A program made the translations under genes and the position numbers. Below the pieces are notes generated by a model, which worked only from the letters and a program-made list of their open reading frames with translations, made no database searches and was not told where the DNA came from. DNA of 64,000 nt from an uncultured cyanobacterium (GTDB taxonomy: Bacteria; Cyanobacteriota; Cyanobacteriia; Cyanobacteriales; Nostocaceae): assembly GCA_963772205.1 (NCBI GenBank), contig CAVYXS010000258.1, positions 16,325 to 80,324 of the forward strand, in the 5' to 3' direction. Each line of letters opens with the position of its first letter. Position 1 is the first letter of the stretch. Positions 5,418-40,969 of the stretch are shown here, piece after piece.

Positions 5418-5939
5418 TCACCGAGGATCTTGTGGGATATTCAATGGTTGTCCCGAACGGTCATAAACTAAAATATCCCACTGTCCATTGCTACTAGATT
5501 CAAACGCAATTCTATTACCATCGGCGCTAATGGCGGGGTTGCGGACTTCCGCTTGCAAATTAGCAGTTAAATTTCGTGATTGGCGTGTTTCTCTGTCGTA
5601 GAGGAGGATAGCCGATCGCCCTTGACGACTAGCAGCAAAAACGATGTAGCGACCATCACTAGAAACCCCAGGATGAGAAGCGATCGTATCAAAGGAATTT
5701 AAACCTGACAGATCAACCAAATTACTAGTTACAGTATCAAACATGTATATATCTTGGCTACCTCGGCGGTCACTGGTAAAAACAATGTATCTACCCGAAA
5801 TTTGGGGATTTAATTCCGAGGCTAGACTGTTGAGACTCCGACCCCCCGAATCAAACGGATAACTTAACAGACGCGGGTAGCCAAAACACCCATTCAAACC
5901 TAAGCACGTAAACACAGAAATCAAAATAGAGGGTTTCAT
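5418..5939 (-). CDS. TolB-like periplasmic beta-propeller (PD40 repeat) lipoprotein
   Basis: Repeated GRYIVF..SDR..G..DIY PD40-like motifs. N-terminal lipoprotein-like signal MKPSILISVFTCLGLNGC. Confidence 0.65.
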   Translation of the reverse strand: MKPSILISVFTCLGLNGCFGYPRLLSYPFDSGGRSLNSLASELNPQISGRYIVFTSDRRGSQDIYMFDTVTSNLVDLSGLNSFDTIASHPGVSSDGRYIVFAASRQGRSAILLYDRETRQSRNLTANLQAEVRNPAISADGNRIAFESSSNGQWDILVYDRSGQPLNIPQDPR

Positions 5940-6022: not shown

Positions 6023-6520
6023 CTACGGTGGTGGACTCACGGTGGCACCATTGGGAATATCTAACTCTATATTTGGCCCCCGGTCTAGGACTTCAATATC
6101 CCACTGACCACGGCTAGCCGTTTCAAATACAACATAACGTCCATCTGGACTGATTCCAGGCTTTCTGACCCAGCCACGATAGATTGGGGTGAGAATTTGC
6201 GATTGTTCGATAGCGCGATCGTAGAGTGCCACCACTGGTCTACCTTGGTCGCTAGTAAGATAAACAATATAACGCCCTGTGTAGCTCAGGCTAGGACTTT
6301 CGGCAATTGTTTCCCGTCGGTTTAAGCCTGGTATGCCGATAAAGCGTTGCTGTTCCAAGTCGTACATCAGTAACTGGTGATTACCATTACGATTGGAAAC
6401 AAAAGCTAAAAAGCGCCCATTTCCACTCAAAGTTGGTTGCTCTTCCGTGTAGCGACTATTGAGGGATGTAGTCCCAATGGGGATATCGCTCGAACTACAA
6501 GATACAAGCAGACTTACCAA
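6023..6520 (-). CDS. TolB-like periplasmic beta-propeller (PD40 repeat) lipoprotein, paralog of neighbour
   Basis: Same PD40 repeat pattern (GRFLAFVSNRNGNHQLLMYDL; GRYIVYLTSDQG; GRYVVFETASRGQWDI). Lipobox LLVSC. Confidence 0.65.
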   Translation of the reverse strand: MVSLLVSCSSSDIPIGTTSLNSRYTEEQPTLSGNGRFLAFVSNRNGNHQLLMYDLEQQRFIGIPGLNRRETIAESPSLSYTGRYIVYLTSDQGRPVVALYDRAIEQSQILTPIYRGWVRKPGISPDGRYVVFETASRGQWDIEVLDRGPNIELDIPNGATVSPPP

Positions 6521-28040: not shown

Positions 28041-28175
28041 GTTTCTTGTCAACGTCAACCTCCATAACTGCCGTGTCTTGCTCTAGACACGGCATTTTTT
28101 TAGTAGTGAGCGATTTATCGCTCTTTAAAGCACTTTAGTGCTTCAAAACCCACCGATTTTAGTCCTAACTGCGAA

Positions 28176-28287
28176 CTATAGCGGTTATCGGTTGAGTCCA
28201 ATACACTCGTAAGGGCACGGCACTGCCGTGCCCCTACACCGGACGATATGATTTGTAAGGCATCCAACTGAGAACCACTATATCGAC
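28176..28287. mobile_element. ~110-bp MITE (CTATAGCGGTT…GGGCACGGCACTGCCGTGCCC…CCACTATAT family)
   Basis: Other copies at 33059-33167, 52742-52845, 21062-21165 (degenerate) and 41916-42010, with fragments at 56117-56172 and 45580-45660. The central palindrome occurs at many gene 3' ends. Confidence 0.7.
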
Positions 28288-30591: not shown

Positions 30592-30995
30592 AATTTTATT
30601 ATAGATGTATCTAGCTCCAGGGCACGGCATTGCCGTGCCCCTACCAATCTATTTGTATCATCATTAAAGTCAAACAGTATTAGAAGTTATTCCCCCCATC
30701 TCTCCCTAAAATTAATCTTGCTAACAAAATTACACTAAGTTTAAGAAAACTGACATCGCCAAAGTGTAGTGATAACTTAGATAATTAGTTGCCCAAAAGG
30801 CACACATTATGGAAAGTTATTCATGTTCCCTTGGTAAGCGTCATCAGAATAAATTGGGTCATATTGCAGCGTCTGTCGTCGGTACATTAGCACTAGCTAT
30901 AAGTATTAATTCTGCCAATGCTACTCCAGTAAAAACAACTACTGCAAAAGAAATTACCCCCGTATCAGTTCAACTAAATCAGACAAAACCAGTCA

Positions 30996-32918
30996 TTGCC
31001 CAGTTACAAAGCAACAAGCCTCAATATCAGGCAATGCAGACTGTCGCCTGGCGGAATCATCCCCATTGTTCTGGTTGGTGGTGTGATTGTTTTTGTCCCC
31101 CTGTTCTTTGGCGGATTGGTGGTGATTGGTGAACGCGAAGTAGGTATTGTGGTGAGAAAATTCACCCTTTCCGGGCGCGGCATCCCATCTGGAGGACTAA
31201 TTGCGCTCAATGGTGAAGCAGGTTTGCAAGCAGATACCCTCGCCCCTGGTTGGCACTGGGGGTATTGGCCTTGGCAGTACTCTGTTCGCAAAGAGCAGGT
31301 AGTTGTTGTGCCTCAAGGTGAAATCGCCCTGATTGTGGCTGCAGATGGGGCTTCCAACCCGCCAGAGCGGATTTTGGGCAAAATCGTCGATTGTGATAAC
31401 TTTCAAGATGCCCGCAAATTCCTCACCCACGGTGGCGAAAAAGGTCGGCAAATGGGTTTTCTCACAGCCGGTACATACCGCATCAACACCGCCCTGTTTA
31501 AAGTAATTATGGCATCGAACGCCAGCACTCATGGCATGAATCCCGAACAGTTGCGCGTGTATAATTTACCCGCAGATAAAGTTGGGATTGTCACTACTTT
31601 AGATGGTTTACCAATCCCCGGTGGTGAACTTGCAGGCCCCATAATTGCTGGACATGACAACTTCCAGAGTGGTCAGAAATTCATTGATGGCGGTGGAAGA
31701 CGCGGTTTACAAGAGCAAATACTACTTTCTGGTTCCTGGAACTTGAATCCTTGGTTTGTCCAAGTTGAACAAGTCCCCATGACAGAAATTCCCATTGGCT
31801 ATGTGGGCGTGGTGATTTCTTTCGTGGGTAAAGCTCATCAAGATGTCAGTGGTGCAGCCTTCACCCACGGTAACTTGGTGAATCAGGGACATAAAGGCGT
31901 GTGGGTGGAACCACTTTATCCTGGTAAGCACCCGATTAATTCCCGGATTATGAAAATTGAATTGGTGCCTACCACCAACATTGTTTTAAACTGGTCAGGT
32001 CGCACCGAACGCCACAGCTATGATGCTAAACTAGCTTCCCTCACAGTGCGATCGCGTGATGGGTTTGCTTTCGATTTAGAAGTAGCGCAAATTATCCATG
32101 TGGGTGCGTTAGATGCGCCAAAGGTAATTTCTCGCGTTGGTGCAATGCAAAATCTGGTAGACCATGTATTAGAACCAACCATTGGTAACTATTTCCGCAA
32201 CTCAGCCCAAGACTATACTGTACTAGACTTTCTCACCGCCCGGAGTGAGCGCCAATCGGAGGCTGCTGAGTATATTAAAACAGCACTGCGGGCTTATGAC
32301 GTGCAAGCGATCGACACCCTCATCGGTGATATTCAGCCGCCAGCATCGCTGATGCAGACACAGACAGACCGGAAAATTGCGGAAGAACAACGCAAAACCT
32401 ATGAAGTGCAGCAGATGGCGCAAACCCAACGCCAACAACTAGTTCGGGAGACAGCACTGGCTGATATTCAGCAAGAAATGGTGAAATCGGAGCAGAGTGT
32501 ACAAATTGCTGAGTTGAAAGCCCAAGCCGAAATTAAGCAAGCTAACGGTCAAGCCGAGTCTACCAAACTACGGGCAATTGCGGAAGCTGAAGGTATCCGT
32601 GCCACAGGTAACGCTAAAGCCGAAACCTACCGCACTGGTGTAGAAGCCCTGGGAACACAAGGTTATACAGCAATGCAGCTGATGCAAATTATCGGCGATC
32701 GCAACGTCCGATTGATACCCGATATCCTGGTTGGTGGTAGCAACGGTAGCACCAACGGCTTGGTGGATGGGTTACTTTCGATGATTTTATGGAATCAAAC
32801 TGGTAAGCAAGGTGAAGTGACACCAACACCATTGCATCCTCAAGCAGTAGTCAAAAACCAATCCACGTCACAAAATGGTATTCCGTCGGTAGTTTTAGAT
32901 TTGCCAAAAGATAAGTAA
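30996..32918 (+). CDS. flotillin/SPFH (band 7) family membrane protein
   Basis: N-terminal TM (IIPIVLVGGVIVFVPLFFGGLVVIG) followed by an SPFH domain and long Ala/Gln/Glu-rich coiled coil (…AELKAQAEIKQANGQAESTKLRAIAEAEGIRATGNAKAETYR…). 640 aa. Confidence 0.8.
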   Translation: MPSYKATSLNIRQCRLSPGGIIPIVLVGGVIVFVPLFFGGLVVIGEREVGIVVRKFTLSGRGIPSGGLIALNGEAGLQADTLAPGWHWGYWPWQYSVRKEQVVVVPQGEIALIVAADGASNPPERILGKIVDCDNFQDARKFLTHGGEKGRQMGFLTAGTYRINTALFKVIMASNASTHGMNPEQLRVYNLPADKVGIVTTLDGLPIPGGELAGPIIAGHDNFQSGQKFIDGGGRRGLQEQILLSGSWNLNPWFVQVEQVPMTEIPIGYVGVVISFVGKAHQDVSGAAFTHGNLVNQGHKGVWVEPLYPGKHPINSRIMKIELVPTTNIVLNWSGRTERHSYDAKLASLTVRSRDGFAFDLEVAQIIHVGALDAPKVISRVGAMQNLVDHVLEPTIGNYFRNSAQDYTVLDFLTARSERQSEAAEYIKTALRAYDVQAIDTLIGDIQPPASLMQTQTDRKIAEEQRKTYEVQQMAQTQRQQLVRETALADIQQEMVKSEQSVQIAELKAQAEIKQANGQAESTKLRAIAEAEGIRATGNAKAETYRTGVEALGTQGYTAMQLMQIIGDRNVRLIPDILVGGSNGSTNGLVDGLLSMILWNQTGKQGEVTPTPLHPQAVVKNQSTSQNGIPSVVLDLPKDK

Positions 32919-33269
32919 TTATTGTTGTACGTAAGTCGGGTGTACAAGAACCCCACCCCCAACCCCCTCCCCGCAAGCGAGGAGGGGGCTATTACATCAA
33001 AAACTCCATCCCCTCTGGGTGGAGTTTTTTATAATTTTTATTTATATTTTAGACACAAATATATAGCGCTTCTCAGTTGGATGCAATACAAAATTATATC
33101 GTCGCGTGTAGGGGCACGGCACTGCCGTGCCCTTACTCAACCGATAACCTATATATAGCGTTTCTCGCCCTAGTTAGGTACACCCGTAGGGCACGGCAGC
33201 TGTTCCTTACACCGCGTGATACAATTTTGTACCTCATCTGAATGTGTTGTGCTATAAGCCACAACAGTA

Positions 33270-33352
33270 ACCTTTGTCGTGACGACAGTAACCTTTGTCG
33301 TGACGACAGCAACCTTTGTCGTCACGACAGCAACCTTTGTCGTGACGACAGC
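33270..33352. repeat. intergenic tandem repeat, 21-bp unit (CCTTTGTCGTGACGACAGCAA) x ~4, each unit containing palindrome GTCGTGACGAC
   Basis: Visible as AACCTTTGTCGTGACGACAGTAACCTTTGTCGTGACGACAGCAACCTTTGTCGTCACGACAGCAACCTTTGTCGTGACGACAGCAACC. Confidence 0.85.
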
Positions 33353-33635
33353 AACCCCTTTCACGTAGTTGAACCACACTCTCAGGGCACAGCAGTGCTG
33401 TGCCCCTACAACAAATGTGGTCTATTTACCTGAAAACTGCTGTAACTTGACACCTATGGCGAGACGCCCGCCCCAGTCCTTGGGCTAGATGTCCACCCCA
33501 CAAGATGGAATAATTTATTTCTTAGTAATCCCTTACCGCAAAATTGCATATGTCCCACCCTGCTCAGAAGTATATAAAAGTAAGCCAGCAAATAACGGTG
33601 GTGTTGTCTTAAATTTCATTTCATACATTTATAAT

Positions 33636-35120
33636 ATGCGTTTACCCAACATTGGTCTAAGTTTCCTCGCCCTAGTTATTGCCACTGCTTCCACACCGAT
33701 AACTTTCAGCTTTTCCGCATCACCAGGAGAGTTACGAGTACTGGCGCAAACATCAGAGGCACGGAAAGCGGAAGCAGATAGATTGTTAGACCAAGGTTTA
33801 CAGCAGTATCAAACCAGTCAATTTACAGCAGCATTGCAGTCTTGGCAACAAGCACTACAAATCTACCGGGAAATAAAAGACCGTCAAAATGAGGGTGCTG
33901 CACTGGGAAATCTCGGTCTTGCCTACTATTCCTTGGGAGACTACAAAAAAGCCATTGACTACGAACAACAATTGTTGGCGATCGCACGCTCAATTAAAGA
34001 CCGTAAAAGTGAGGGTGTTGCACTGGGAAATCTCGGTCTTGCCTACCTTTCCTTGGGAGACTACAAAAAAGCTATTGAGTACGAACAACAATTCTTGGCG
34101 ATCGCACGCTCAATTAAAGACCGTCAAAGTGAGGGTAAAGCACTGGGAAATCTCGGTCTTGCCTACTATTCCTTGGGAGACTACAAAAAAGCCATTGAGT
34201 ACGAACAACAATGGTTGGCGATCGCACGGGAAATTCAAGACCGTCAAAGTGAGGGTCTTGCACTGGGAAATCTCGGTCTTGCCTATCTTTCCTTGGGAGA
34301 CTACAAAAAAGCCATTGACTACGAACAACAATTCTTGGCGATCGCACGGGAAATAAAAGACCATCAAAGTGAGGGTCTTGCACTGGGAAATCTCGGTCTT
34401 GCCTATCTTTCCTTGGGAGACTACAAAAAAGCCATTGACTACGAACAACAATTCTTGGCGATTGCACGGGAAATAAAAGACCATCAAAGTGAGGGTGCTG
34501 CACTGAACAATCTAGGATTGGCTTACTACAAACAAGGAAATCTCACTTTAGCAGAAAGTACCTTGATTCAAGGCATAAAAGTTTGGGAGTCTCTACGAGG
34601 TCGAGAATTAAAAGATAGTGAGAAAGTTTCAATCTTTGAAACCCAAAGTCAAACCTATCGCACTTTACAACAAGTCATAATTGCTGAGAATAAAATTGAA
34701 GCAGCCTTAGAAATAGCTGAACGTGGACGGGGGCGTGCTTTTGTGGAGTTACTTGCTTCCCGGTTATCTGCTAACCCTAAAGAACAATTTCCCACCCCAC
34801 CAAATATTGCAGAGATTAAACAAATTGCCAAATCACAAAATACTACTTTCGTGCAATATTCAATTATTTATAATGAATTCAAGATTCAGGGTAAACAAGA
34901 AGCCAAGGAATCAGAACTCTACATTTGGGTAATCAAACCGAATGGTGAAGTTACCTTCCGTAAAGTTGACCTTAAACCTTTATGGCAAAAAGATAATACA
35001 ACTTTAGCTGAGTTAGTCACCAGCAGCCGCGAGTCAATAGGTGTCAGAGGACGTGGCGCTATTGATGTAAGTTACAACCCCAATGCACCCAAAGGCAAAA
35101 ACCGCTTTTTACAGCACTAA
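33636..35120 (+). CDS. TPR-repeat protein with truncated C-terminal CHAT-domain start. Seven near-identical 40-aa TPR units.
   Basis: Signal/TM MRLPNIGLSFLALVIATAS. Units of ALGNLGLAY(Y/L)SLGDYKKAI(D/E)YEQQ(F/W)LAIAR(S/E)IKD(R/H)QSEG repeated 7x (120-nt DNA repeats 33.88-34.5 kb). Then ERGRGRAFVELLASRL…LYIWVIKPNGEVTF, which resembles the N-terminal part of a CHAT domain. ORF stops before any catalytic His/Cys region. Confidence 0.65.
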   Translation: MRLPNIGLSFLALVIATASTPITFSFSASPGELRVLAQTSEARKAEADRLLDQGLQQYQTSQFTAALQSWQQALQIYREIKDRQNEGAALGNLGLAYYSLGDYKKAIDYEQQLLAIARSIKDRKSEGVALGNLGLAYLSLGDYKKAIEYEQQFLAIARSIKDRQSEGKALGNLGLAYYSLGDYKKAIEYEQQWLAIAREIQDRQSEGLALGNLGLAYLSLGDYKKAIDYEQQFLAIAREIKDHQSEGLALGNLGLAYLSLGDYKKAIDYEQQFLAIAREIKDHQSEGAALNNLGLAYYKQGNLTLAESTLIQGIKVWESLRGRELKDSEKVSIFETQSQTYRTLQQVIIAENKIEAALEIAERGRGRAFVELLASRLSANPKEQFPTPPNIAEIKQIAKSQNTTFVQYSIIYNEFKIQGKQEAKESELYIWVIKPNGEVTFRKVDLKPLWQKDNTTLAELVTSSRESIGVRGRGAIDVSYNPNAPKGKNRFLQH

Positions 35121-35244
35121 AGTGCTACGACAGGACTAAAGTCCTGACTACGAATTTATAATTTTCACAAGTAGGGGCTGGGCAGGGCATTGCCGTGCCC
35201 CTACCAAGGTATTGGTATCATAGTTAAATTAAGGCGGCTAAATT

Positions 35245-37020
35245 TTGAATTTCTTACACAACCGTTATCGCTTGCTGAAGTTAATTGGTAAAGGGGGATT
35301 CTGCAAAACCTATCTCGCTGTAGATGAGGGTGAGTTTCCCCCTGTTCCTTGTGTTGTGCAACAATTGTCGAATGACAATCAAACACCTGCAGCTTTTGTG
35401 CAAAAGGCGCAGTTACTACAAGAGTTGGGACAGCATCCACAAATTCCCGCAATACTGGCACATTTCGAGGATAATCAGCATTTTTATTGGGTGCAGGAGT
35501 TTATTGCTGGCGCTAATTTGGCTACCTTATTGGCAGATGAGGGAAGCTTTAGTGAAACTCAAATTTGGCAACTTTTAGAGAATATATTACCAGTTATTAA
35601 ATTTATTAGCGATCGCCATCTGATTCACCGCGATATTAAACCAGAAAATATTATTCGCACATCCCCCGGAAATTTCGTCTTAGTTGATTTTGGTGCGGCT
35701 ATAATCACCAGCGCCATTAACCAGCTAACTGTTGAAAATACTATTGGTAGTCCAGTATATATCGCTCCAGAACAAGCCGAGGGAAAACCAGTTTTTGCGA
35801 GTGATCTTTACAGCCTGGGTGTAACTTGCATTCACCTACTGACTCAGATTCCGCCTTTTGATTTATTTGATATTGCGAACGATTGTTGGATTTGGCAACA
35901 GTATCTTACCACCAGAGTGAGTCAGCGTCTCTCACAAACTCTCAACAAACTGCTACAAAATAACCTCACCCAACGCTTTCAAACAGCGGATGAAGTGATG
36001 GAAACTACAGGTATCATTGATGCCCACCCTTACCCAGCAATCACTTCAGAGTCTATCAGCAGTCCAAAATTGCCAATTCATCCACAATGGCAATGTATAC
36101 ATACAATTAGTGGACATTCCAGTATATCTGCTGCTATTAACTCTCTGGCTTTCAGCCCTGATGGTAACACCCTCGCCAGTGGCGATGATGACAAAATCAC
36201 GAGATTGTGGGATTTAAGCACCAAAAAATTGCTAACCAGCTTGAAAGGACATAGCCAAGGGGTGAAATCTGTAGCCTTTAGTCCTGATGGACAAATTTTA
36301 GCAACGGCTAGCGACGATAAAACTATTAAATTGTGGAATTTCAACACATTCGCAGAAATCTTCACCCTCAGCGGACACTCAAATGCAGTGAAATCAGTAG
36401 CTTTCAGTCCAGATGGACAGATGCTTGCTAGTGGAAGTTGGGATAAAACAGTCAAACTCTGGGATGTCAATAATGGTCAAGAAATTTGTACCCTGACTGG
36501 ACATCAATTACAAGTAAGTTCAGTCGCCTTTAGTCCCCAAGGAGAACTGTTAGCCAGCGCCAGTTTTGACAGAACGATTCGCCTGTGGCAACTTTCTGCC
36601 AGAGAATTGAAAAACCGCCCAGATTATACCTTGTTAGGCACCCTTTCAGGACATGCTAGGACGGTTTTAACAATCGCTTTTAGTCCCGATGGTCAAATTT
36701 TGGCGACGGGTGGCGACGATAACACAATAAAATTGTGGGAGGTAAACACTGGTCAGATAATTACCACACTTTCAGGTCATTCTTGGTCGGTGGTAGCATT
36801 AGCTTTCACTGCTGATGGCGAAACGCTGATTAGCGCCAGTTGGGATCAGACAGTTAAACTGTGGAGAGTAAGAACTGCAGAACAAATTGCTACTCTATCG
36901 AGTCATGTAGACTCTGTATCTGCCATTGCTGTGAGTCAAGTTGCACAGCTAATTGCTAGCGGTAGCAAGGATAAGACCATCAAATTATGGCAGCCTTTGA
37001 CCCACCCACGCCTAGAATGA
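35245..37020 (+). CDS. serine/threonine protein kinase fused to WD40 repeat domain
   Basis: Kinase motifs GKGGFCKTY, HRDIKPENII, DFG, APE. Then seven WD40 repeats (…LASGDDDKITRLWDL…, …ASDDKTIKLWNF…). Confidence 0.9.
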   Translation: MNFLHNRYRLLKLIGKGGFCKTYLAVDEGEFPPVPCVVQQLSNDNQTPAAFVQKAQLLQELGQHPQIPAILAHFEDNQHFYWVQEFIAGANLATLLADEGSFSETQIWQLLENILPVIKFISDRHLIHRDIKPENIIRTSPGNFVLVDFGAAIITSAINQLTVENTIGSPVYIAPEQAEGKPVFASDLYSLGVTCIHLLTQIPPFDLFDIANDCWIWQQYLTTRVSQRLSQTLNKLLQNNLTQRFQTADEVMETTGIIDAHPYPAITSESISSPKLPIHPQWQCIHTISGHSSISAAINSLAFSPDGNTLASGDDDKITRLWDLSTKKLLTSLKGHSQGVKSVAFSPDGQILATASDDKTIKLWNFNTFAEIFTLSGHSNAVKSVAFSPDGQMLASGSWDKTVKLWDVNNGQEICTLTGHQLQVSSVAFSPQGELLASASFDRTIRLWQLSARELKNRPDYTLLGTLSGHARTVLTIAFSPDGQILATGGDDNTIKLWEVNTGQIITTLSGHSWSVVALAFTADGETLISASWDQTVKLWRVRTAEQIATLSSHVDSVSAIAVSQVAQLIASGSKDKTIKLWQPLTHPRLE

Positions 37021-37180
37021 CTAATAGACCTGTTGCAAAAGTCCCCTAACACCCCACCCCCAACCCCTCCCCGCAAGCGAGGAGGGGAGACTTTGACGTA
37101 AGTCAAAGGCGGAGTGGGGTTATTTCTTTTGATTTATGCCCCATGCCCAATGCCCCATGCCCCATGCCCCATGCCCAATA

Positions 37181-39386: not shown

Positions 39387-40969
39387 TTACTGCCAATTTC
39401 TCAACCGAAAGCGCACTGGCATTTTATCGGACGGATAAATTAACAGATTTTGCTGTAATTCTTCCAAAGAAGAACGACCGTTAACTAACTCCCAGTCGAA
39501 GTAGCGGAGCAATAATGCTAGCATCAGAGTTCCTTCTAGCATGGATAGATGCTCTCCCAAGCAACGATGAAGCCCTGAGCCAAAGTCTATCATTGGCAGT
39601 GAACTAGTTTCCTTATCCTTGTCTAACCAACGTTCTGGCAGAAATTCCTCCGGATTAGCATAGACTTGTGGATCTCTTCCAGCAGCAAGCATTGACCAGG
39701 ATACTCTTGTACCGCGAGGAATGACTTGACCCTCAATTACAGTGTCGCGTTGAGTCTCCAATGAAGTTGAGCCAGAAGCGACTGAATAGAGGCGCAATGT
39801 CTCCTTGAGAATTGCACTAATATAAGCCAATTCTTTGAAGCTTTCTGTATTAATACAGCCTTTGCTTTGCCAAACTTGGTCAACTATGTACCGTGCTTGC
39901 TGAAAAACCTTTTGATTTAAGCTCAACTCTCCGACTGCAAAGGATAAAGTATGGGCTGTTGTGTCAGTACCAGCTATTAAGAGTTCAACAGATTCTGCTA
40001 TTAATGTTTCGCGATTGTATTTTGGTTCTTTAGCAGCAATTTTGACTAACATTGATTCAGGAAACAAAGGACTGACTTGTGGTAAATCGGTCTGGCTTTG
40101 TTCTCTCATCTGTAAAGCTGAGGTCTACACGGGGAGTGAGAAATTCCTCTCAAATATCGCCTTGCTGCCCAATAATCTCGGGAATTCTTAGTGGGCAAAT
40201 ATTTCATCCATATCTTCTCTCCAGTAGCTTGGCGTAGGAACCGATAGCCAACAACAGACATTGCTTCATACACCTTGAGAACTTCCAGGATAGGCCCTTA
40301 TGACTAGTACCGTTCTATCCACAGGAATGCCTAAGTACTAAACTAGGAAATTACCCTCATTGTTAGTTCGACAAACAGAGGATCTACCTGAACTTCTTTT
40401 GGTAGCGCAGCTTCTTTCAGTGTCTCAATTACTTGTTCGCAGGCTTGGTTAATAATTTCCACATATTTGGAGAGACTGCTAGAACTGAATTCCGGTTCCA
40501 AGCCTTGCGTCGCCACTGCCACTCAGTCCCAGTTTCTCCTATCATAATGGGACTAGTAATATCGTTCCAAGCTTTGCGTAATCGCTCAGAATCTAATTAA
40601 GCTACCATCTCTCATCCCATTGACAATGGTATCTTCGATAACTTTTGGTTTACTTAAAACGACAACTGGAGAACCGCCATTCCACATCACATACATCGGC
40701 CCTAGCTGTTGACTCCAATCAAACATTAATTGGAATAATTTTTTCTGTTTCACTGCTGCTAATATTTGCGGAAGATTTCCTAACAGCCAGTGTTTGGGAG
40801 GAGAAGGGAGTGATTCTAGCGCTTTGTATGTGTTCTTTTGTTTCCACCAGCGCCACCCAATTGTTCCCGCTATGGTAGTAACGCCTAAGACTGTGGCTAA
40901 AGATGGAAGTGAGTCAGAATAAGCAATCTGAGCAGTAATGTTTTGAAACATGAATCCGCCTTTATCCAC
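39387..40969 (-). pseudogene. cytochrome P450, disrupted. N-terminal fragment 40586-40969, C-terminal fragment 39387-40109; the ~475-nt middle has no open frame.
   Basis: C-terminal fragment has I-helix AGTDTT, ETLRL (K-helix ExxR) and heme-binding FGSGLHRCLG. N-terminal fragment has a membrane-anchor/P450 N-terminus. No continuous ORF joins them. Confidence 0.7.

Follow-up and report, generated by a model that had tools for sequence, protein, structure and literature searches.

The question raised by this locus is whether an open reading frame (ORF) that encodes tetratricopeptide repeats (TPRs) and ends shortly before a Ser/Thr kinase-WD40 gene represents a CHAT-less component of signalling or what is left of a broken gene. 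The locus lies in a stretch of 64,000 nt from an uncultured cyanobacterium of the Nostocaceae (GenBank assembly GCA_963772205.1, contig CAVYXS010000258.1); this whole stretch is called the window, and all coordinates given without another source are window positions. The ORF belongs, in truncated form, to the TPR-CHAT proteins, a known and abundant family in which a TPR array precedes a caspase-like CHAT domain (PF12770). We think it likely that it is a remnant without protease function and without link to the kinase. A preliminary description of the same DNA had proposed either a recently truncated gene or a CHAT-less TPR decoy beside the kinase, and it is the first idea that comparison with relatives bears out. 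The ORF and the two features of its 3' part on which the argument turns are:

33636–35120, + strand: truncated ORF for TPRs and a pre-CHAT module (from the ORF list, similarity to relatives, Pfam matches to TPR families only and an AlphaFold2 (AF2) model).
34623–35107, + strand: pre-CHAT module of ~165 aa, made up of capping helices, a three-stranded beta-meander, two helices and a flexible linker.
35108–35116, + strand: truncation breakpoint, where identity to the closest relative (L001/L002) ends; the family reads ...NRFKQLHELLI... and the window ...NRFLQH followed by the stop.

The open frame listed for the + strand extends from 33489 to 35120, with an ATG at 33636 and a TAA stop at 35118–35120, and the product counted from that ATG has 494 aa. 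We take this ATG as the true start because similarity to the DNA of the closest relative sets in at 33635 and the N-terminus, MR(F/L)..IGLSFLALVIATAS, can be aligned with the starts of paralogues. Homology and the N-terminal TPR array place the ORF within the TPR-CHAT family by descent. When one genome per species was scanned with the last 204 aa as reference, 21 loci were found in Calothrix, Tolypothrix, Nostoc, Rhizonema and others, with 44–83% aa identity over this segment. Full length is the rule among them: in 19 the frame runs 276–311 aa further, through a complete CHAT domain to a canonical ...WAAFTLIGE end, and the remaining two are cut 85–115 aa past the matched stretch. The closest relative (83% aa identity) is one Calothrix membranacea-type sequence obtained from two sources (L001/L002); its own gene is apparently frameshifted at the end of the TPR array. 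At the DNA level, identity to it is 82–85% over 33635–35107, rises to ~90% in the last ~150 nt and is then lost within a few bases.

The preliminary description had read the C-terminal segment as the first ~130 residues of a CHAT domain. This reading had to be given up: Pfam returned no match to PF12770 on the 494-aa protein (E ≤ 1) nor on its last 204 aa taken alone (E ≤ 10), and relatives score 237–245 bits against that profile. Essentially no CHAT sequence is kept, and the segment is a family-specific pre-CHAT module, placed between TPRs and CHAT in every relative. The last 204 aa retrieve TPR-CHAT relatives very strongly (E about 1e-89 to 1e-50), many of which bear PF12770 immediately downstream; the protein search behind these homologues returned only proteins of at most 354 aa, and no frequency estimate is drawn from it. 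The module directly abuts PF12770 in homologues, and in full-length relatives the match starts at profile position 1–5 exactly at the point equivalent to the stop in the window. There, alignment sets ...KGKNRFLQH and the stop against ...K.K.RFKQLHELLI.PIADLLP... in the relatives. In the AF2 model of the window protein, a helix (391–400), the strands of the beta-meander (405–445) and further helices (447–467) are followed by a disordered tail. The model of a full-length homologue, P0212, with a mean predicted local distance difference test (pLDDT) score of 88, shows these elements too, and there a loop of low confidence leads on to CHAT helix 1 (QLKQLHKLLIEPIAD). Going by these models, the cut falls at a domain boundary, within the first turn of that helix.

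Missing from the ORF is the ~280-aa CHAT domain, including its His/Cys dyad. The dyad motifs, HLATHG and LSAC(D/E)TG, are both present in 18 of 18 aligned full-length relatives, and the stop in the window comes ~150 residues ahead of the catalytic His column, so that the earlier statement that the ORF ends well before the dyad was correct. As the whole CHAT domain and dyad have been removed, the product cannot be a protease. No CHAT-coding DNA was detected in the 64 kb by tblastn with the partial and complete CHAT domains of 18 relatives (best E 0.4). What remains matches TPR proteins: Pfam gives TPR families only (TPR_12, E = 6e-44), the AF2 model (pLDDT 87) contains a TPR solenoid at residues 30–377, and Foldseek matches this model to plain TPR proteins only, e.g., LGN/Pins. 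For the window proteins, all NCBIfam matches were below the curated cut-off, and PADLOC and NCBIfam together gave only generic TPR or kinase matches.

The DNA that follows the break belongs to a different class of sequence:

35113–35204, + strand: cluster of dispersed short palindromic repeats (AGCACTAAAGTGCT, GGACTAAAGTCCTGACTACGAA, GGGCAGGGCATTGCCGTGCCCCTAC), which recur far above shuffle expectation.

The last two or three codons of the ORF and its TAA stop derive from this repeat element, with the stop sitting in the loop of the first palindrome. Four copies of GGACTAAAGTCCTGACTACGAA occur in the window against zero expected, GGGCAGGGCATTGCCGTGCCCCTAC is found at about nine sites, and the intergenic region 28117–28237 repeats the module order of the cluster. 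We take these repeats to be akin to the short dispersed repeats (SDRs) of Nostocales genomes, reportedly the subject of Elhai et al. in 2008. The likeness lies in palindromic units of 14–25 nt that recur throughout the intergenic DNA of the window and form the right-hand truncation junction. It is this juxtaposition that is observed, and the repeats may have had a causal role in the deletion.

From these data we infer that the ORF would be the 5' remnant of a paralogue from a family of TPR-CHAT (caspase-like) proteases that is multi-copy in Nostocales and whose members are exported. A deletion or rearrangement, presumably repeat-associated and with its junction at ~35108–35116 against the palindromic repeats, would have taken the entire ~280-aa CHAT domain and left a partial upstream element, the signal-like N-terminus, a TPR solenoid that includes the homogenised units, and the pre-CHAT module together with the linker. 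This remnant would be neutral in function, or a left-over scaffold of TPRs at most, sitting in a hypervariable slot between a flotillin gene and the kinase-WD40 gene, and the kinase would be its neighbour by accident. The two genes that bound the slot are:

30810–32918, + strand: flotillin/band-7 gene, left anchor of the slot (orthologues of ~700 aa; +1 frameshift near 31048).
35245–37020, + strand: gene for a Ser/Thr kinase with seven WD40 repeats (Pfam Pkinase at 8–251, seven WD40 matches at 283–583).

The kinase gene, whose TTG start is conserved among orthologues, begins 124 nt after the TPR ORF, practically the 125 nt given in the preliminary description. Orthologous loci, which were reached via the flotillin gene, have the order atpD-atpC-flotillin-slot-kinase/WD40-PSRP3(−)-HAD in four lineages: a Gloeotrichia-like metagenome contig (L024), Nostoc sp. 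T09 (L029), Calothrix sp. NIES-2100 (L031) and Aulosira sp. ZfuVER01 (L033). The first of these shares 93% nt identity with the window in flotillin and 89% in the kinase gene, and across the four the kinase orthologues show 72–89%. The slot holds an RPE65-family gene, a Uma2 gene or a 7-kb kinase-GUN4/PIN/Uma2 set, and in none of the four lineages a TPR-CHAT gene; tblastn found no trace of the relatives' RPE65 or Uma2 genes in the window. Among the 21 TPR-CHAT loci, none shows synteny with the flanks of the window and none has an orthologue of the window kinase; a kinase of 43% identity lies ~4 kb downstream in one of them (L020). Judged by gene order, the kinase is a stable resident of the synteny, and the TPR fragment fills a variable gap rich in repeats, as an occupant specific to its lineage.

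The link to the kinase that the preliminary description had drawn is thus not sustained: since the synteny of the kinase is conserved without a TPR-CHAT neighbour, the adjacency would be incidental. Moreover, a direct partnership is unlikely because the TPR protein is probably exported, as discussed below, and the Pkinase and WD40 regions of the kinase leave no room for a membrane segment. We think that the locus illustrates how decay in a fast-evolving family of many copies, within a variable slot, can be enough to place a "domain-less" architecture next to a signalling kinase. An annotation pipeline will likely label such an ORF "tetratricopeptide repeat protein", which could be over-read as a kinase partner.

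Two features at the 5' side of the ORF concern its possible export and expression:

33636–33746, + strand: signal-peptide-like N-terminus (hydrophobic stretch and ...VLAQT motif, near-identical in seven paralogues).
33538–33611, + strand: family upstream element, promoter- or leader-like, of which the first ~75 nt are kept (nhmmer E = 1e-14).

The N-terminus, MRLPNIGLSFLALVIATAS...ELRVLAQT, can be aligned residue by residue with the starts of seven paralogues from other genomes, and residues 1–26 of the window protein have a pLDDT below 50 in the AF2 model. Paralogue alignment gives it the look of a signal peptide, so that the window protein is probably exported, and the same N-terminus suggests export for the whole TPR-CHAT family. 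The upstream element was found by nhmmer as a ~120-nt segment ahead of 11 TPR-CHAT paralogues in other genomes, to which the segment in the window matches. It stands 110–250 nt before TPR-CHAT start codons in several genera and is 75–82% identical, though the synonymous divergence (Ks) of the coding sequences is ~1 (sites: L002 9360–9480; L006 8337, 11602 and 14624; L009 5138 and 8694; L010 8697; L012 9289; L017 8337; L018 8563). For the TPR-CHAT family it may serve as a common promoter or leader. Compared with the paralogues, the stretch from the element to the ATG is ~110 nt shorter in the window. The element contains promoter-like boxes and a possible 14+6-bp hairpin with 92% of cells paired, and this putative hairpin is degraded in the window. 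An RNA structure is not claimed, as the 92% pairing is no better than in shuffles (80 of 500) and the hairpin has no covariation support. No Rfam family matched the element, and the Rfam scan of the slot gave two sub-threshold chance matches only.

Some facts do weigh against considering the ORF a mere remnant. Its 494 codons contain no internal stop or frameshift, and the ratio of nonsynonymous to synonymous divergence (Ka/Ks) to the nearest relative is 0.21 (Ks 0.40), within the 0.13–0.5 of intact pairs, even if pairwise Ka/Ks mostly reflects the history before truncation and has little power for changes since then. The ORF also ends neatly at the predicted domain boundary after a flexible, disordered linker, which together with the pLDDT of 87 makes a folded product plausible, and it retains the signal-like N-terminus and part of the upstream element. 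These are the points that would favour a functional, exported TPR protein without CHAT, that is, a periplasmic scaffold that binds a ligand or substrate and competes with full-length paralogues or modulates them, as a decoy or dominant-negative form. We regard this as unlikely, although it survives better than the other alternatives. No orthologue of such architecture was found and the slot is without TPR-CHAT in the four related lineages, ~110 nt of the family leader have been lost and the putative hairpin is degraded, and signs of decay are seen nearby in the flotillin frameshift and a split cytochrome P450 gene. The intact frame fits either a very recent truncation or a retained CHAT-less product. 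By a rough estimate, a 1.5-kb frame would be disabled after ~1–2% neutral divergence, so that either the truncation would be recent or the frame maintained.

A search for a family of the short kind bears on the same issue. With the pre-CHAT module as query, HMMER (E ≤ 1e-3) found 1324 relatives among 1.84 billion cluster representatives. In the best 150 of these, 109 proteins reach at least 251 aa beyond the point equivalent to the stop, 29 end part-way, and 12 (~8%) end within 20 aa of it. The 12 short representatives were inspected by sequence and two of them by genomic context, and both of the latter turned out to lie among split genes. P0011 (L035) is part of a tandem array of paralogues each split in pieces, with a CHAT ORF directly downstream, and P0004 (L036) sits among gene pieces, the next piece being unannotated. 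Both P0004 and P0006 end in ...DYMNY, which by our own reading of the residues is a frameshifted RLHELL, and P0186 ends in ...LKRLH, the first residues of the CHAT helix, presumably at a contig edge. Thus, no established family with TPRs and a pre-CHAT module but without CHAT was found in the best 150 representatives, with two of the 12 short ones seen in context. Apart from this, genomes of Tolypothrix and Calothrix (L006, L007, L009, L035) contain TPR-CHAT paralogues arrayed in tandem, with two to three copies or more, and in a 5.5-Mb genome (GCA_034541955.1) each TPR-CHAT copy is broken by frameshifts into two or three ORFs.

A more specific version, in which a stable exported decoy of TPRs and pre-CHAT module is expressed under the family promoter, possibly with transcription reading through into the kinase-WD40 gene, has in our opinion slightly lower chances still. 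Read-through is conceivable because no terminator-like site occurs between the TPR ORF and the kinase gene. Nothing supports the decoy idea of the preliminary description as such. Taken as a remnant, the ORF carries little biological weight, and specialists may care more for the putative export signal of the family and the conserved upstream element of the subfamily.

An assembly artefact is improbable; in this reading the organism would have the full-length gene, and the contig would have been mis-joined or collapsed at dispersed repeats. The junction does abut repeats that occur many times, and the window holds two further broken genes, flotillin and the P450, which could come from assembly error or real decay. 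The flotillin gene has a 1-nt insertion against three orthologues that divides it into a 107-aa ORF (30809–31132) and a 640-aa ORF (30996–32918), either as real decay or as an assembly indel; a public protein identical to it at 100% (P0064) is 611 aa long, so that the frameshift may be present in the deposited genome too. However, the 2.3-kb slot is collinear with relatives on both sides, which would demand two coordinated mis-joins, the break lies at a gene/repeat boundary outside any repeat shared with TPR-CHAT genes, and most other checked genes of the window are intact.

The least probable alternative is a split by rearrangement with the CHAT half surviving elsewhere in the genome and TPRs and CHAT made as two polypeptides, which would suit a break at a domain boundary in a multi-copy, often tandem and readily rearranged family, but no CHAT DNA occurs within 30 kb on either side and a free CHAT half would be without the signal peptide of the family. 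Were it true, an orphan CHAT ORF would start near KQLHELLINPIADLLP, with ~83% or higher identity to L002.

The internal repeats of the remnant had also attracted attention in the preliminary description, which counted seven near-identical 40-aa units:

33867–34505, + strand: array of 40-aa (120-nt) TPR units, with five full units (33867–34466) and the first ~40 nt of a sixth.

The tandem array is real, with near-identical units numbering five. Tandem Repeats Finder reports a period of 120 nt over 33867–34505, with 5.3 copies and 92% matches. The five in-register units share 87.5–96.7% nt identity pairwise, where more than 90% had been stated, and 82.5–95% aa identity. A sixth resembles them over its first ~16 residues only, and the cap unit at the N-terminus, with ~25% identity, is unrelated in sequence. 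Differences among the units cluster at unit positions 2, 11, 21, 31 and 36, and the ratio of nonsynonymous to synonymous differences per site (pN/pS) among the five is 0.3–1.4, based on just 2–10 differences and hence too few to interpret. The recent expansion or concerted evolution suggested earlier is plausible, and it is also a general trait of the family: 120-nt arrays are present in 18 of the 21 relatives, with 2–11 copies and 67–92% matches, and protein length varies from ~600 to 1200 aa with a constant C-terminus. Homogenised arrays of varying copy number are a family trait, and the array in the window lies toward the homogeneous extreme, yet is unexceptional among relatives.

Comparison with known systems gives the cyanobacterial TPR-CHAT proteins (PF12770 with TPR_12/TPR_10; L002–L022 in Calothrix, Tolypothrix and Nostoc; P0212) as the closest kin. 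The window ORF has in common with them the signal-like N-terminus, the 40-aa/120-nt TPR array and the pre-CHAT module, and with the nearest subfamily also the upstream element, whereas the whole CHAT domain, the catalytic dyad and ~110 nt of leader are missing from it. DdvA of Myxococcus xanthus (PDB 8ROT/8RW5), a periplasmic TPR-CHAT protein (PMC11506125), is the best Foldseek match of the full-length family model (E 9e-18), and there is also a profile match between it and the CHAT region of the full-length family. Its extracytoplasmic location is what we would expect for the TPR-CHAT family of the window. However, DdvA spans the membrane and works as an anti-sigma factor, having a zinc-binding domain in the cytoplasm and a sigma factor as partner; all of this is absent from the window ORF, as is CHAT. 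Separase and Csx29 (the TPR-CHAT protein of Craspase; PDB 9HN0, 8EEY) share the TPR and caspase-like architecture with the full-length family model in Foldseek, but they are cytoplasmic, active proteases with other partners, and the truncated window protein itself matches plain TPR proteins only.

Several minor observations concern the DNA around the ORF. Ahead of the TPR gene, positions 33264–33356 of the slot consist of a 21-nt unit repeated in tandem (4.4 copies, 95% matches). The 30-nt stretch 33416–33445 has 90% identity, in inverted orientation, to sequence just past the flotillin stop in Gloeotrichia-type loci (L023–L028), and could stem from a local inversion or be one more dispersed repeat. 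At the other end of the slot, the ~85 nt before the kinase start are conserved among Nostoc T09 (L029 13045–13129), Aulosira (L033) and Calothrix NIES-2100 (L031); of this segment, only the last ~35 nt (35208–35244) can be recognised in the window and, likewise, in the Gloeotrichia-like contig. The 124-nt gap showed no sigma-70-like site.

Elsewhere in the window, on the − strand, the adjacent ORFs 5418–5939 and 6023–6520 each match PD40, a repeat of the WD40-like beta-propeller kind, and represent either a pair of small genes or one more gene that has been split. The split P450, also on the − strand, consists of the ORFs 39387–40109 (Pfam p450 251–455) and 40586–40969 (p450 2–59), and the ~476 nt between its halves hold no ORF of at least 60 aa on that strand. 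Downstream of the kinase gene, at 37136–37176, the 7-nt repeat ATGCCCC is present in 5.9 copies.

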